DNA from: a virus
Reading direction: 5' to 3' (one strand)
DNA length: 17,625 bases
Virus record (IMG/VR): IMGVR_UViG_3300045988_101864
Location: 1 to 17,625 of that record
Shown one piece after another: positions 3,792 to 17,557 of the stretch; within the stretch, counting starts at the first letter, position 1; each line of letters starts with the position of its first letter. Both the position numbers and the translations under genes were made by a program. The notes under the pieces were generated by a model. It saw only the letters and a program-made list of their open reading frames with translations, was not told the DNA's origin and did no database searches.

Positions 3792-4586
3792 ATGGCAAAA
3801 AGAAAGACGATAAACATAAAGAAAGTAAAGCTAATACGACCAGCATATAGACCACCTCAAAAGATAGTCAATGCTTTTGCAAACCCTTTAGGAGTAAGGC
3901 CAGAAGAAGTTAAAGTTGATGTCAAGAAGAAACGTAAACACAAAAGGTCTGTTAAAATTGAAGCACCTAAAATAAGTCACAAGCCAAAGAAAACAATATC
4001 ATTGACAAGGTCCAAGGGTGGAAAGCTTGAGTTAAAGACAAAGCAGAAACGCACTAGAATCAGTGTTAAGAAAGTAAAGCCAAAATCAACACGTATCGGA
4101 AGAAAACAGAGAATCAGAAGAAAGCCAGTAAAGGAAGTCTCTAATTTCCCTTTAGCAAAAGAACCAACGATAGCGACTGGAATTGAAGATGTAGAAGATA
4201 TTGAATTATCTGATGAATACATTGACTGGTCGAGTGCTAAACAGAGTGCGATTGATAGATTATACAGTGCATTGCATTTAATGGCTGATGAAAACCCAGA
4301 AGCAAGTTCTAAGGAGCTTGCACATATAGGTGCTGATTATGTAGTCAACTATTTAAAAGATACTTTCATTGATTATGATGAAGACACACTGGCAGAGTTT
4401 CTATTGTCATATCCACTGGCAGACTTTTTTGACAGTTATGTATTGTTCTATGGTGGACTTGGTCTAGTAACTGGTGACACAAGTCAACTGTACAAACTAG
4501 AAGACCAATTGGCTAGATATGCAGATAATCTAAGCTATAATTATAAAAAAGATTTAGCGAACAGCGACAGATTGGACGATATTTAG
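3792..4586 (+). CDS. Terminal protein (phi29 gp3 analogue; 264 aa)
   Basis: Lies immediately upstream of the protein-primed polymerase (2-nt gap) and is close in size to phi29 TP (266 aa). The N-terminal half is extremely basic. The acidic C-terminal domain contains ADFFDSY, resembling the phi29 priming-loop EEFDS(232)E as I recall it. Confidence 0.7.
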   Translation: MAKRKTINIKKVKLIRPAYRPPQKIVNAFANPLGVRPEEVKVDVKKKRKHKRSVKIEAPKISHKPKKTISLTRSKGGKLELKTKQKRTRISVKKVKPKSTRIGRKQRIRRKPVKEVSNFPLAKEPTIATGIEDVEDIELSDEYIDWSSAKQSAIDRLYSALHLMADENPEASSKELAHIGADYVVNYLKDTFIDYDEDTLAEFLLSYPLADFFDSYVLFYGGLGLVTGDTSQLYKLEDQLARYADNLSYNYKKDLANSDRLDDI

Positions 4587-4588
4587 GC

Positions 4589-6529
4589 ATGGCTAGAAAA
4601 AGAAAGAAGAAAATACTGGTAGGTGACTTTGAAACCACTGTATACAAAGGTCAGCAGGATACCCAAGTATGGGCCAGTGCAGTAGTTGAACTGTATACAG
4701 AGGACGCAAAAGTTTTCCATTCGATCGAAGCTACATGGGAATATCTGATAAGTTTAAAATCAGATGTTCTCATCTATTATCATAATCTTGGGTTTGATGG
4801 TACATTCTGGTTATGCTATTTGTTAGGAAAGCTGAAATTGAAGCAGGCATATGAGGATTTGTCTACAATGGACGAGTTCAAAGTCAAATGGATTCCAAAC
4901 GAGGATATGCCAGATGGAAGTATCAAGTACAGTATATCTAACATGGGTAAGTATTATTCCATCACTTGTTTTGTGAAAGGACATTACATTGAGTTTAGAG
5001 ACAGTCTAAAACTTCTTCCTTTCTCTGTATCTGAAATTGGAAAAGCATTCAAGACAAAGCATCAAAAATTGGCAATGGAATACGAAGGGTTCAGGTACCC
5101 TAACTGTTTCATTTCAGATGAAGAAAAGGAATATATTAAGAATGATGTTTACGTGGTAAAGGAAGCACTTGAATTTATGTTTGAACAGAAACACGATTCC
5201 ATGACGATTGGTACGTGCTGTATGAAAGAGTTCAAGCATACCTATGACAAGTGGACTTACGAAGAAATGTTCCCAGATTTAAAAGCGATAGAACTGGATG
5301 AAGATAAGTTTGGTTCAAAGGATGTAGATGAATATATTAGAAGGTCCTATCGAGGTGGATGGTGCTACGTTGTAAAAGGATGCGAGAACAGAATTTTTAA
5401 AAAAGGATGTGTATGCGATGTAAACAGTTTATACCCTTCCGTTATGCACTCATCATCTGGTAATGCATATCCTATTGGTCAGCCATTGTTCTGGAAAGGA
5501 AATTTCATACACCCAGAAGCATTGAGGGACAATATGTATTATTTCGTGCGTATTAAAACCAGATTCAAATTGAAAAAAGGTATGCTTCCATTTATTCAGA
5601 TAAAGAACAGTGGAATGTACAAGTCCAATGAATATCTGGAAACGAGTGACTTTAAAATCAATGGAAAATATTATAAAGGGTATATTGACAAGGACGGAAA
5701 CAAGGTAGATGCAAGGCCTACCCTTACATTGACCATGACGGATTATGCACTCTTTAGAAAACACTATGATGTAAAGGACTTTGAAATTCTGGATGGGTGT
5801 TACTTTGAATCTAGAGCAGGTATCTTTGATGACTATATCAATCCTTGGCGAGACTTGAAAATGAAGTCTACTGGAGCCATGCGACAACTGGCAAAACTTT
5901 TCTTGAACAATCTTTACGGTAAAATGGCTACGAACTCATGTTCAAGTTTTAAAGTAGTCAATATCATTGATGGCAAGATTGACTATGACTTGGTGATTGA
6001 GTTTGAAAAGAAGACTGGATATATTGCTTGTGGAAGTGCCATTACCAGTTATGCCAAAAACTTTACTATCACAAATGCTCAGAACAATTTTACAGGTAGT
6101 GTCAATCCAAAGTTTGTATATGCGGATACAGATAGTATTCACTGTATGTGTTCTCGTGAAGAACTTGTGGGTGTTAGAATACATCCAACAGACTTCAACG
6201 CTTGGAAGTGTGAAAGCTATTTTGATGAAGCCGTGTATGTGAGACAGAAAACCTATATAGAGCATATTACACATGAGGATGAAGTACCTTGTGAACCTCA
6301 TTATGATATCAAGTGTGCTGGCATGGGGAAGAGGTGCAAGGAACTGATGAATATATCTTTAAGTGGTGGGGAAGTGCCTACGGATGCAGATGAAAAAGAA
6401 AAAGAGTTCTTGCAGACAAGAAGAACTCTAAAGGATTTCAAGGTAGGATTGAAAGTTCCAAGTAATTTAAAACCTCATCGTATTGAGGGTGGTATTCTGT
6501 TAGAAAAATTTGACTATGTTATGAGATAA
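4589..6529 (+). CDS. Protein-primed family-B DNA polymerase (phi29 gp2 homologue; 646 aa)
   Basis: All hallmark motifs are present: ExoI DFETT, ExoII YYHNLGFDG, ExoIII YIKNDVYVV, motif A DVNSLYPSVM, motif B KLFLNNLYGKMA, motif C YADTDSIH, RQKTYIE, and KCAGMG. Confidence 0.97.
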   Translation: MARKRKKKILVGDFETTVYKGQQDTQVWASAVVELYTEDAKVFHSIEATWEYLISLKSDVLIYYHNLGFDGTFWLCYLLGKLKLKQAYEDLSTMDEFKVKWIPNEDMPDGSIKYSISNMGKYYSITCFVKGHYIEFRDSLKLLPFSVSEIGKAFKTKHQKLAMEYEGFRYPNCFISDEEKEYIKNDVYVVKEALEFMFEQKHDSMTIGTCCMKEFKHTYDKWTYEEMFPDLKAIELDEDKFGSKDVDEYIRRSYRGGWCYVVKGCENRIFKKGCVCDVNSLYPSVMHSSSGNAYPIGQPLFWKGNFIHPEALRDNMYYFVRIKTRFKLKKGMLPFIQIKNSGMYKSNEYLETSDFKINGKYYKGYIDKDGNKVDARPTLTLTMTDYALFRKHYDVKDFEILDGCYFESRAGIFDDYINPWRDLKMKSTGAMRQLAKLFLNNLYGKMATNSCSSFKVVNIIDGKIDYDLVIEFEKKTGYIACGSAITSYAKNFTITNAQNNFTGSVNPKFVYADTDSIHCMCSREELVGVRIHPTDFNAWKCESYFDEAVYVRQKTYIEHITHEDEVPCEPHYDIKCAGMGKRCKELMNISLSGGEVPTDADEKEKEFLQTRRTLKDFKVGLKVPSNLKPHRIEGGILLEKFDYVMR

Positions 6530-6538
6530 TGTTATACT
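6510..6538 (+). promoter_or_regulatory. Promoter TTGACT-17-TATACT with TG extension, spanning the polymerase stop codon
   Basis: -35 at 6510-6515, TG at 6530-6531, -10 at 6533-6538. It points into a 260-bp ORF-free region. Confidence 0.65.
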
Positions 6539-6544
6539 ATAAGT

Positions 6545-6790
6545 GTGTTGATTGTAGCTTTAACACGCATAGACTCTTTCTTTAAAAATCGTACTGTAAG
6601 GCCCAGTGTTCCACGTGAAACATTGGGTCTTACACATTATGGTATTGCCAGACGTACTCATTCATGAGGTGAAAATTGTGGGTCTCTTCACTTGGAAAAC
6701 AGTGCCACACACCTAGTCGAAGTAAGATATCGCATGGTCTTGAGTTGTCTGTAACAATATAAAAGGTACTCTAATGAGTACCTTTTTTAT
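6545..6790 (+). ncRNA. Candidate prohead/packaging RNA (pRNA) or other structured ncRNA (about 245 nt; ends approximate)
   Basis: This is the longest non-coding stretch in a densely coded genome. It has its own promoter and ends at a strong terminator. It contains a 15-bp hairpin (6596-6610 / 6619-6633, two G-U pairs) with loop CCACGUGA, plus further helices at 6545-6567 and 6677-6709. It lies downstream of pol in the direction of transcription, as pRNA does in phi29. Confidence 0.5.
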
Positions 6791-6793
6791 TTT
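6761..6793. terminator. Bidirectional intrinsic terminator between the convergent pol/ncRNA and ATPase units
   Basis: 11-bp stem aaaaggtactc/gagtacctttt with loop taat. Flanked by an A-run upstream and ttttttatttt downstream, so a U-tract follows the stem on either strand. Confidence 0.85.
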
Positions 6794-7871
6794 ATCCATA
6801 TGACAATGCAGTCATAAGGCATTCTTTACAGTTCAAATCTTTGAAACGGAACAGTCCGCAGTCATACATTGTTCTAAGTTTCTGAATAATAAACGTGTTG
6901 CTTCTAAGAAGACGATAATTTATCTGGTGGTCTGAGTTTGTTACAGCCAGTTTGAATGGGGAAGTCTTGTCATAGGATGTGGAGCAATAGTAATAACCTT
7001 CTTCCATATAATCAAATATACCATAGTTCACATTATTGAATTTCAATGTACATACATAGGCACACTTACCACTTGGCTTATCGACAAAGGATTTATCATC
7101 ACGAAGATATATACCTTCACTGGAGTATTCAACATACGCATTATTTGAAAAAGCTTGATTGAATCCAGATTCTTTTTGGCATTCACTAGCACTTTCATTG
7201 AAGCCTTGTTCCAAGACCCATCCTACACCACGTAGGAATTTAGTATTCCACTGCAATCGTTTGATTAAGGAGTACGGAGTACCACTTCCAAGTGCTAGAT
7301 AGTATGGATTCAGTAATGTGACTGGGTTGGATATCATATAGACTGGTACATACCGGACTTGCTTACCGCCACCACGCGCCACGGAAGTATGGATAGATAT
7401 GAACTTTGTTATTTCATCTGGAGCATACTTGTTAGTTTCAGACTGAAACTCATCGAAGATGATACACGTTGCATCAGCTAGAAAGTGGGAATACTTTTTA
7501 ACTTGGTCCGCCTTGTTCAAGGCGATAGCATAACCGCAAGATTTCTTTTCGGTCTGTTCACCTTGATATACCATTAATTCATAGATAGTCCCACCAGCTC
7601 GTTTTTCCGTAAACATAGAACAGTTTGGGAAAAACAGATCTCGTATTTCCTTAAAGAATCTATCACCTATATTAGGAAGTTCGTAGTCAAATCTTGTAAG
7701 GATGATGAACTTTTCTTTTTTCTTTAGCCATTTTTTAAATGCATATCTATTGAAGAATGTTGTTTTTCCAGCAGAACGGTTTGAAGTACAGATGAATATT
7801 TCTGGGGTATTCCCATTGATATCTTTCATACCCATGATTTTAGTCCCATCATAGAATTTATTTTCACTCAT
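6792..7871 (-). CDS. DNA encapsidation (packaging) ATPase, phi29 gp16 homologue (359 aa)
   Basis: Walker A NRSAGKTT and Walker B CIIFDEF (phi29 TIVFDEF). N-terminal ENKFYDGTKIMGM resembles phi29 KSLFYNPQKMLSY. ATG 7871 is preferred; the track start at 7880 is a GTG only 2 nt from the SD. Confidence 0.93.
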   Translation of the reverse strand: MSENKFYDGTKIMGMKDINGNTPEIFICTSNRSAGKTTFFNRYAFKKWLKKKEKFIILTRFDYELPNIGDRFFKEIRDLFFPNCSMFTEKRAGGTIYELMVYQGEQTEKKSCGYAIALNKADQVKKYSHFLADATCIIFDEFQSETNKYAPDEITKFISIHTSVARGGGKQVRYVPVYMISNPVTLLNPYYLALGSGTPYSLIKRLQWNTKFLRGVGWVLEQGFNESASECQKESGFNQAFSNNAYVEYSSEGIYLRDDKSFVDKPSGKCAYVCTLKFNNVNYGIFDYMEEGYYYCSTSYDKTSPFKLAVTNSDHQINYRLLRSNTFIIQKLRTMYDCGLFRFKDLNCKECLMTALSYG

Positions 7872-7895
7872 AAATTTCACTACCTTTCTACTATA

Positions 7896-17528: not shown

Positions 17529-17557
17529 TTGACATTAATTCTATTTTATGATATACT
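17529..17557 (+). promoter_or_regulatory. Near-consensus promoter TTGACA-17-TATACT with TG extension, pointing outward toward the right terminus
   Basis: TTGACA at 17529-17534, TG at 17549-17550, TATACT at 17552-17557. Only about 62 nt of template remain downstream. Confidence 0.65.

Follow-up and report, generated by a model that had tools for sequence, protein, structure and literature searches.

The pRNA of bacteriophage phi29 is, to our knowledge, the sole RNA component known in any viral DNA-packaging motor, and RNA nanotechnology makes wide use of it as a building block. In reviews as recent as 2024 it is treated as a peculiarity of phi29 and its Bacillus-phage relatives (PMC11476376, PMC5066667). 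The pRNAs of the group comprising M2/Nf, B103, SF5, GA1 and Goe4 share a common secondary structure with very divergent sequences, and their kissing-loop sequences vary by lineage yet remain complementary (PMC4201828). For Streptococcus phage Cp-1 a pRNA was also proposed, which is not reliably identified by the covariance models of the Bacillus phages (PMC6266182) and so offers an earlier case of a pRNA missed by models based on sequence. The published literature we searched links RNA of the pRNA kind almost only to Bacillus phages, and in the open-access literature we found none described from phi29-like phages of Clostridium or of the gut.

The stretch of DNA analysed here (17,625 nt, hereafter the window) is the genome of a phi29-like podovirus, a small human-gut phage of 17.6 kb. 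It encodes the phi29-type set of polymerase, gp16 ATPase, gp10 connector, capsid and tail-knob proteins as recognised by Pfam (Phage_connector, E = 3e-49; also Phi29_MCP and phi29_gp9_C). Positions 6530-6791, bounded by the polymerase stop on the + strand and the ATPase stop on the - strand, form the sole internal ORF-free stretch above 200 nt in the window, as a previous sequence-only reading had pointed out, and the longest open frame inside has at most 40 aa. A small protein was considered and dropped, with no ORF above 40 aa and frame-breaking indels in relatives; a coding role is ruled out because single-base indels occur among close relatives. No tRNA or tmRNA was found. The same reading had proposed a promoter-to-terminator non-coding RNA gene on the + strand, a pRNA candidate, and this idea we uphold because of comparative evidence, on grounds other than those first given, namely ATPase synteny, pRNA topology and a covarying loop pair. 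With a probability of about 0.7, the region is a + strand gene for a non-coding RNA of ~245 nt, whose 3' ~120 nt (6640-6763) are of pRNA type and serve DNA packaging. The locus and its flanks are composed as follows.

4589..6529, + strand: protein-primed family-B DNA polymerase gene (ORF list; Pfam DNA_pol_B_2, E = 7.9e-44)
6510..6538, + strand: predicted sigma-A/sigma-70-type promoter, TTGACT-17-TATACT with extended -10 TG (10 of 12 consensus positions plus TG)
6545..6566, + strand: P1, a 7-bp hairpin starting at the predicted +1 (100% of cells paired in 17 sequences)
6595..6634, + strand: P2, a 16-bp hairpin with loop CCACGUGA at 6611-6618 (fold; pair alternations)
6640..6763, + strand: pRNA-like domain, 124 nt (full-length match to the family covariance models)
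6642..6666, + strand: 5' strands of helix A, i.e. A1 6642-6647, A2 6649-6654, A3 6656-6660 and CAUG 6663-6666 (pairs with 6733-6760)
6667..6714, + strand: B/C/E arm (compensatory changes in B, C and E)
6667-6671 with 6710-6714, + strand: helix B of this arm, then internal loop AAAAU
6677-6681 with 6705-6709, + strand: helix C of this arm
6682-6688, + strand: 5'-side bulge GUCUCUU between C and E
6685..6688, + strand: UCUU, candidate R-loop-type (CE-loop) kissing nucleotides directly 5' of helix E (complementary to AAGA 6724-6727)
6689-6692 with 6701-6704, + strand: helix E of this arm, with loop UGGAAAAC at 6693-6700
6718..6732, + strand: D hairpin, CGA/UCG with a 9-nt loop AGUAAGAUA at 6721-6729 (loop covariation)
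6724-6727, + strand: AAGA, candidate L-loop-type (D-loop) kissing nucleotides (complementary to UCUU 6685-6688)
6733..6760, + strand: 3' strands of helix A, i.e. CAUG 6733-6736, A3 6741-6745, A2 6746-6751, UAA bulge and A1 6755-6760 (compensatory changes)
6761..6791, either strand: bidirectional intrinsic terminator, 11-bp stem (6761-6786) and T-run (called on both strands)
6792..7880, - strand: gp16-type DNA-encapsidation ATPase gene (Pfam Podovirus_Gp16, E = 4.3e-24)

Both ends of the gene had been predicted before, and both are present. The TG-extended promoter takes its -35 element and spacer from the final 20 nt of the polymerase gene and places the predicted transcription start at about G6545. 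Its -35 and -10 hexamers are invariant in 16 aligned IMG/VR relatives and in 3 metagenome relatives, one of them the more divergent L092, and all substitutions are confined to the spacer; taken as a class, promoter-like sites show no enrichment in the window (77 observed vs 79.8 expected). The bidirectional terminator is called on the + and the - strand with a better T-run on the former, and two pairs of its stem are compensated (G-C to A-U and U-A to C-G). The ATPase gene is convergent with the RNA gene; the terminator is predicted to close the latter on the + strand and, in the other direction, the ATPase transcript on the - strand. The whole region folds at -79.8 kcal/mol on the + strand (z = -5.8 vs shuffles) and is somewhat less marked on the - strand (z = -4.3); this stability is owed mostly to the long hairpin and the terminator, and the pRNA-like domain folded alone is not unusually stable (z = -1.9). 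Directly upstream of 6640 no convincing promoter is seen in the window. Because of the 5' extension of ~95 nt, helix A would stand away from the 5' end of the RNA unless the transcript is processed.

Within the 124-nt domain, helix A comprises 21 bp in four segments and has C-G to U-A and C-G to G-C double changes, with G.U pairs on the + strand only. For the 17 sequences of the window's clade, 99% of cells are paired, 7 pairs are changed on both sides, and every one-sided change gives G.U on the + strand. L092, which is of the same type and more divergent, has compensated changes in A3 (two more pairs), B, C, D (a stem pair A-U to G-C) and P2. The parse was checked in 27 distant sequences plus the window, and the E-loop motif UGGAAnAU is common to the window and the distant members. 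An RNA from the - strand of the window was rejected: the arm order is mirrored, the family model finds no match, and the G.U pairs turn into A.C mismatches.

Clostridium phage CS229P2 and dozens of related phage contigs from gut and rumen have a member of the same RNA family beside their ATPase gene. Model R1, built from the + strand of the window's clade, matches over its full length at 14 of 16 distant loci (E from 4e-8 to 0.37), each time on the strand of the ATPase gene and immediately behind its stop codon, and it also matches the cultured phage CS229P2 (E = 1e-6). Model R2, built only from the distant ATPase-strand elements (in an alignment, A5, that had been selected with R1), finds the window at 6640-6763 on the + strand with 89.7 bits (E = 7e-18) and nothing on the - strand, and it detects 39 elements in an independent metagenome set. 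In the family alignment 93.6-93.8% of cells are paired and 36 of 38 pairs are changed on both sides, which none of 500 shuffles matches and where slid controls stay at 26-44% paired, these covariation counts being taken from model-fitted alignments, which lean toward the structure. The compensatory changes are spread across eight helices. MAFFT with RNAalifold predicted no structure for the distant elements, MAFFT having misplaced the differences in bulge and loop length, and its alignment was replaced by a manual parse checked helix by helix and by the model-based alignments. At the distant loci the fold is systematically better on the ATPase strand.

Regarding the range of the family, no element was detected within 3 kb of the ATPase gene in the sister clade L047-L054, whose ATPase is 39-40% identical, and R2 has no match in Clostridium phage HM2, Eggerthella phage LE1-1 or the L047/L053 clade. 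Only weak R2 matches beside the ATPase gene are seen in MT836152, MT835904 and Hungatella phage CH17P1; a weak match in MT835826, away from the ATPase gene, was taken as noise. The orientation differs between clades. In the distant ones the element sits in the 3' tail of the ATPase message, from which it may be released by processing, and no convincing promoter is recognisable directly upstream of it. The RNA gene of the window's clade runs opposite to the ATPase gene and has an additional domain at its 5' end. The structure is retained whether it lies on the ATPase strand or on the opposite one, and since the gene stays beside the ATPase gene in spite of the flip, a trans-acting product fits better than a cis element.

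The two loops covary as well. The UCUU of the bulge is complementary to the AAGA of the D loop, and relatives lengthen this pairing to AUCUU/AAGAU and UAUCUU/AAGAUA. Inside the window's clade the pair changes from UCUU/AAGA to ACUU/AAGU, with L092 having AACUU/AAGUU, where one U-A pair has become A-U; across lineages it appears as AGCA/UGCU, UGCA/UGCA, UGGU/ACCA, GACA/UGUC, AAACU/AGUUU and AUAG/CUAU. According to the manual parse the mean complementarity is 4.06 bp within lineages vs 2.46 bp across them, and columns taken automatically from the model alignment give 4.09 vs 2.51 bp; in both treatments none of 100,000 permutations reaches the observed value. The loops that behave like the kissing loops of phi29 are the bulge at 6682-6688 and the D loop at 6721-6729, two different complementary loops of the kind that known pRNAs use. 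Such complementarity could equally well reflect a pseudoknot inside one molecule.

The comparison with phi29 pRNA (RF00044, '3WJ core of Phi29 bacteriophage pRNA') concerns two phi29-type podoviruses, both with a gp16 ATPase and a gp10 connector. In both RNAs a core of ~120 nt is closed by a long bulged helix A of 5' and 3' ends, and a three-way junction leads into a C/E arm and then a D hairpin; the order A, C, 5'-side bulge, E hairpin, C', D hairpin and A' is that of the Rfam phi29 consensus. In both, the bulge between C and E is on the 5' side only with the pairing nucleotides abutting helix E, the loop complementarity is 4-5 nt of Watson-Crick pairs (AACC/GGUU in phi29, UCUU/AAGA in the window), the gene lies downstream of the polymerase (early) genes with a promoter of its own, a predicted one in the window, and an extra, dispensable-looking domain lies outside the core. 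This domain is at the 3' end in phi29 (domain II), whereas in the window it is the first ~95 nt (P1, then P2), an accessory domain limited to the window's clade. The gene abuts the ATPase gene in mid-genome, unlike that of phi29 at the left end; the D stem has 3-4 bp and a 7-9-nt loop in the family vs 6 bp and a 5-nt loop in phi29; the E loop in the window is 8 nt with the conserved UGGAAnAU; the arm is divided into B and C by a 5-nt internal loop; and helix A has its 3-nt bulge in the 3' strand (UAA), where phi29 has it in the 5' strand (CCA). There is also no covariance-model similarity in either direction. The RF00044 scan that had been suggested as a check is negative in the window at the gathering score and at E ≤ 10, RF00044 has no match in 20 related loci or in CS229P2 (the phi29 positive control scores 145.4 bits), and neither R1 (E ≤ 10) nor R2 (E ≤ 1) matches positions 1-1200 of phi29, which hold the pRNA gene. 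Formal Rfam membership is less likely in view of this negative result, while the functional analogy is not lowered by it. The family shows the same pattern of lineage-variable, complementary loops as the pRNAs of Bacillus phages, and unlike them its hosts are gut Clostridia (Clostridium symbiosum for CS229P2). Cp-1 is likewise a phi29-like phage outside Bacillus, but its host group and the genome position of its proposed pRNA differ from those of the window.

The RNA would be transcribed from the promoter at 6510-6538, starting near 6545 and ending at the terminator at 6761-6791; the long interrupted helix A joins the ends of the domain, and the junction bears the C/E arm and the D hairpin. 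By analogy with phi29, the UCUU bulge and the AAGA D loop would pair between molecules, so that a ring of RNA closes on the connector of the prohead before it is filled, and helix A would serve with its distal end as the docking site for the gp16-type ATPase of the neighbouring gene. Packaging of the DNA would depend on such an RNA, and mature virions would lack it. In phi29 gp10, an N-terminal RKR binds pRNA; the connector encoded in the window has a basic N-terminus (MGKKNRYK), which is the sole hint toward a role of the RNA at the prohead and connector.

Regarding the wider scenario, we give slightly better than even odds to the view that RNA-dependent motors are not peculiar to Bacillus phages, and that a pRNA family unseen by current models is widespread in phi29-like phages of human-gut and rumen Clostridia. 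The RNA would always lie beside the ATPase gene, as the 3' tail of its message in most clades, and in the window's clade it would have been inverted, have acquired a promoter and a terminator and have been joined to a 5' domain with the palindrome, through which its synthesis might be coupled to a regulator. If such a second, very divergent pRNA family exists, the RNA ring would be an old and general part of the phi29-type motor, and dozens of natural kissing-loop and three-way-junction variants would become available for structural and engineering work, with phages CS229P1-3 on Clostridium symbiosum as a culturable test system. It would also account for a gap of 120-260 nt that is left unannotated in many genomes of gut phages, and the orientation flip together with the 5' domain would serve as a natural experiment on RNA end formation.

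Different explanations have to be weighed against the pRNA reading, and one of them places the function elsewhere in the same RNA. The hairpin previously described as 15 bp at 6596-6633 exists with its loop, but it is actually 16 bp long (6595-6634); it varies by G.U/A-U and G-C/G.U alternations and by one pair changing from U-A to C-G. Its apex (6607-6622) is a copy, with one mismatch, of a clade-wide 16-bp DNA palindrome TGTTTCACGTGAAACA, of which ~80 copies vs ~1 expected occur in 512 kb of related phage DNA, in genes and intergenic regions alike. The palindrome in P2 resembles a protein-binding site. The sequence-only reading had proposed multimerisation through the CACGUG of this loop, together with an anti-terminator-like switch in which gtactcatt (6654-6662) pairs with aatgagtac (6773-6781). 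Both features are present in the window, the two 9-mers being exact complements as stated, and a 4-nt self-complementary core (ACGU or CGCG) survives in both of the close relatives where the hexamer is broken (CCGCGUGA in L010, CCACGUUA in L013). Nevertheless this version is very improbable, since P2 is not part of the conserved domain and none of the distant family members has it, and the self-complementarity of CACGUG arises because CACGTG is the centre of TGTTTCACGTGAAACA, a palindrome found genome-wide with coding regions included; the chance of a 4-nt palindrome in an 8-nt loop is moreover estimated at ~0.27. For the 9-nt complement the chance expectation is estimated at ~0.1 per region. 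Its pairing has no compensatory change at all: it is broken in 6 of 17 relatives by substitutions that are compensated within helix A, and at another position in 9 of 17. Helix A and the terminator stem are compensated independently of each other, and the two exclusive pairings, both conserved and covarying, that would characterise a terminator/anti-terminator switch are not observed.

A conserved structured RNA with some other role, e.g. a regulatory small RNA or a binder of the ATPase or polymerase message, is an unlikely but more serious candidate. Its loops would form an intramolecular pseudoknot, as complementary loops of one RNA can do, and its likeness to pRNA would be convergent or superficial. 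In line with this, no covariance model connects the family with RF00044 or phi29 pRNA, whichever way the search is run, and the distant elements sit in the 3' tail of the ATPase message with no recognisable promoter of their own. Against it, the full pRNA feature set, that is the size, closing helix, three-way junction, arm order, 5'-only bulge, pairing nucleotides adjacent to helix E and a covarying complementarity of 3-6 nt, occurs together in phages with the gp16/gp10 motor, and the structure is kept on either the ATPase strand or the opposite strand, which argues against a cis-acting 3'-UTR role. Least credible of all is an element acting as DNA (an operator cluster, a cruciform, a replication or packaging signal) or a mere terminator spacer with no functional RNA, as might be suggested by the location between convergent genes, the bidirectional terminator and the palindrome copy with its resemblance to a protein-binding site. 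The many G.U pairs, with one-sided changes to G.U on the + strand only, speak against a DNA cruciform or the other strand, where A.C mismatches would result; the ATPase strand folds systematically better at the distant loci, and compensation over eight helices would be needless for a spacer or an operator.

As for the remaining hairpin of the accessory domain, P1 varies at one pair as U-A, U.G or C-G and at another as G.U or A-U, with G.U again only on the + strand, and it probably stabilises or protects the 5' end of the RNA.

The 17.6-kb window belongs, by its encoded proteins, to a phi29-like podovirus, which besides the polymerase and ATPase listed below encodes a phi29-type major capsid protein, a gp9-type tail knob and a gp10-type connector. 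Its sole internal ORF-free stretch longer than 200 nt is 6530-6791, in which no ORF longer than 40 aa is open and no tRNA was found, and the equivalent region of close relatives carries 1-2-nt indels. The promoter, with its TG extension, and the bidirectional terminator proposed by the sequence-only reading are both in the sequence. The + strand of the region folds at -79.8 kcal/mol (z = -5.8) and the - strand at -68.4 kcal/mol (z = -4.3), while the pRNA-like domain (6640-6763) is by itself not unusually stable (z = -1.9). Using ATPase-based searches we gathered 54 viral and 57 metagenome loci; the nearest relatives come from human-gut metagenomes, and the nearest cultured ones are phages CS229P1-3 of Clostridium symbiosum, with 53% ATPase identity to the window. 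In the close clade (ATPase 92-99% identical) the gap is about 260 nt long and near-identical to the window's. The region is a real, conserved + strand RNA gene, as the idea of a candidate gene for pRNA, the prohead (packaging) RNA of phi29, had rightly anticipated, and its 3' 120 nt are best explained, with a probability of about 70%, as a pRNA-type motor RNA.

Features of the region and its flanking genes; arrows lead to the changed sequences in L092, a relative that has the window's layout but is more divergent
4589-6529 (+), protein-primed family-B DNA polymerase
6510-6538, promoter, TTGACT-17-TATACT with TG
6545-6566 (+), hairpin P1, starting at the predicted +1
6595-6634 (+), long hairpin P2, 16 bp, loop CCACGUGA
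6642-6647 with 6755-6760 (+), helix A1, GUAUUG / CAAUAU
6649-6654 with 6746-6751 (+), helix A2, CAGACG / UGUCUG
6656-6660 with 6741-6745 (+), helix A3, ACUCA / UGAGU -> AGACA / UGUCU
6663-6666 with 6733-6736 (+), CAUG helix, CAUG / CAUG
6667-6671 with 6710-6714 (+), helix B, AGGUG / CACCU -> GAAUG / CAUUC
6672-6676 (+), internal loop, AAAAU
6677-6681 with 6705-6709 (+), helix C, UGUGG / CCACA -> CUUGG / CCAAG
6682-6688 (+), bulge, GUCUCUU
6689-6692 with 6701-6704 (+), helix E, CACU / AGUG, loop 6693-6700 UGGAAAAC
6718-6720 with 6730-6732 (+), helix D, CGA / UCG -> CGG / CCG, loop 6721-6729 AGUAAGAUA
6761-6786, terminator, called on both strands
6792-7880 (-), gp16-type encapsidation ATPase

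In distant clades (ATPase 41-54% identical) a terminator comes first, followed by a conserved element, non-coding and about 115 nt long, that extends up to the ATPase stop codon and naturally forms the 3' tail of the ATPase transcript. In almost all of these loci the better fold is that of the ATPase strand, not of its complement. A covariance model built from the + strand of the window's clade (R1) gave full-length matches in 14 of 16 distant loci (E from 4e-8 to 0.37), each immediately behind the ATPase stop and in the ATPase orientation, and another in CS229P2 (E = 1e-6). A second model (R2), built solely from these distant matches, led back to window 6640-6763 on the + strand with 89.7 bits (E = 7e-18) and no mispaired position, a score that may be somewhat flattered by the selection of its alignment with R1, and had no match on the window's - strand. 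The agreement in position and strand, together with an independent manual parse, does not depend on that selection. Run on the independent metagenome set, R2 picked up 39 elements (E <= 1.5e-6). Their strand follows the clade without exception: all loci of the window's clade carry the element antisense to the ATPase gene, and all loci of the 43-54% clades carry it in the ATPase orientation. These matches and this strand pattern show that the distant elements are homologues of the window's gene, which is inverted relative to the ATPase gene; a promoter and a terminator of its own flank the inverted gene. Adjacency to the ATPase gene is kept throughout, the on-strand element standing immediately past the stop codon in the 41-54% clades (L018-L046, L093-L120).

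The manual parse checked the shared plan helix by helix in 27 sequences on the ATPase strand. In the distant elements a long helix A closes the structure; inside it follow, from 5' to 3', helix C, a bulge of 5-7 nt confined to the 5' side, a short hairpin E whose loop is near UGGAAnAU, the return strand of C without a bulge, a short linker and a D hairpin with a 6-9-nt loop. The window's domain follows this plan on the + strand; read from the - strand, its arms come in mirror-image order. In the outermost helix and tail the sequence itself is conserved family-wide, beyond pairing (GGUAUC...GAUAUAAA; in the window GGUAUUG...CAAUAUAAA, 6641-6647 with 6755-6763), and could be a protein-recognition site and, by analogy, the end of helix A that binds the ATPase; its 3' strand bears a 3-nt bulge (UAA or similar) across the family. 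One lineage (L027, L029-L031, L102; about 4100-4150) has an additional small hairpin after D, e.g. GUC-AUAACA-GAC, which would turn the three-way into a four-way junction.

Base changes follow these helices. Within the window's clade 99% of cells are paired, seven pairs have changed on both sides and every one-sided change gives G.U on the + strand; L092 adds compensated changes in several helices, including P2. Across the family, model-fitted alignments, which favour the structure, have 93.6-93.8% paired cells and two-sided changes at 36 of 38 pairs; none of 500 shuffles reached the observed covariation, and slid controls were 26-44% paired.

Every lineage has a D loop complementary to the 3' end of its bulge, with sequences that vary between lineages (AAGC/GCUU, UAGCA/UGCUA, AAACA/UGUUU, AGCA/UGCU, UGCA/UGCA, GGC/GCC, UGGU/ACCA, CAGCA/UGCUG, AAACU/AGUUU, GACA/UGUC, AUGCA/UGCAU, GGCA/UGCC, AUAG/CUAU, UGGCA/UGCCA). 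Mean complementarity is 4.1 bp within against 2.5 bp across lineages; 0 of 100,000 permutations reach the observed value, both with the manual parse and with columns extracted automatically from the independent set's model alignment. The window pairs UCUU (6685-6688) with AAGA (6724-6727); close relatives lengthen this to AUCUU/AAGAU and UAUCUU/AAGAUA, and L092, inside the same clade, has AACUU/AAGUU, one U-A pair having become A-U. The pairing nucleotides adjoin helix E or sit one base away, placed like the AACC that adjoins helix E in phi29.

The order of elements in the Rfam consensus of phi29 pRNA is also that of the distant elements and the window's domain. However, compared with phi29 the D stem is shorter, the D loop longer and the 3-nt bulge of helix A lies on the 3' strand. 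The scan proposed earlier with the Rfam pRNA model, RF00044, gave no match in the window, CS229P2 or 20 related loci, while detecting phi29 pRNA at 145 bits, and neither R1 nor R2 found phi29 pRNA. According to reviews of 2024 and 2016, phi29 and its Bacillus-phage relatives are the only phages known to have a pRNA (PMC11476376, PMC5066667); models based on Bacillus phages are cited as unreliable for detecting the pRNA proposed for Streptococcus phage Cp-1 (PMC6266182). We found no report in the open-access literature of a pRNA in Clostridium or gut phi29-like phages, and the corresponding gap of the CS229P2 record is without any annotation. The window's probable pRNA-type RNA is new and unrelated in sequence to known pRNAs.

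Compatible and compensatory changes seen on the + strand support both 5' hairpins, P1 and P2, neither of which occurs in distant family members. The hairpin described by the sequence-only reading is present with its loop, but its stem has 16 bp rather than 15. The proposal that its CACGUG loop mediates kissing did not hold: the hexamer is broken in two close relatives and is the centre of a recurrent DNA palindrome, TGTTTCACGTGAAACA, from which the self-complementarity of the loop stems. The 12-nt core (at most one mismatch) has about 80 copies in 512 kb of related phage DNA against about one expected, both intergenic and intragenic (the polymerase gene included), occurs also in phages HM2 and CH17P1, and adjoins the pRNA-like gene in three lineages. 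The suggested anti-terminator pairing of 6654-6662 with 6773-6781 is an exact 9-nt complementarity, yet compensation is absent and the pairing is disrupted in 6 to 9 of 17 relatives.

The palindrome, 16-18 bp as (A)TGTTTCACGTGAAACA(T), recurs in nearly all lineages of these phages, even where the ATPase is only 24-35% identical (window 6607-6622 and 2582-2597; L027 2064, 4179 and 5623; L073 5782; L074 10530; L079 8390; many others), its intergenic copies often lying upstream of the ATPase gene at a distance of 100-150 nt; it resembles a binding site for a protein or a conserved hairpin. The best matches to the promoter consensus in the window (11-12/12; 109-137, 206-234, 671-699, 17529-17557) cluster at both genome ends, as would be expected of early promoters in a linear genome of the phi29 type.

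In a sister clade (ATPase 39-40% identical; L047-L054, L124-L134) the terminator adjoins the ATPase stop, and a convergent ORF (about 73 aa) comes next; the RNA model had no match in L047 or L053 (unfiltered search) or in the metagenome loci of this clade, whose motor RNA, if any, is located elsewhere or too divergent for detection. Hungatella phage CH17P1 has a weak candidate between the polymerase and ATPase genes, on the same strand (L079 13688-13790). The terminator following the element in L027 (4165-4200) is composite, with a lower stem like that of the window's terminator at 6761-6786 (AAAGGUAC/GUACCUUU) and an apex like hairpin P2 (GUUUCACGUGAAACAUUG), possibly a relic of the rearrangement behind the gene's inversion.
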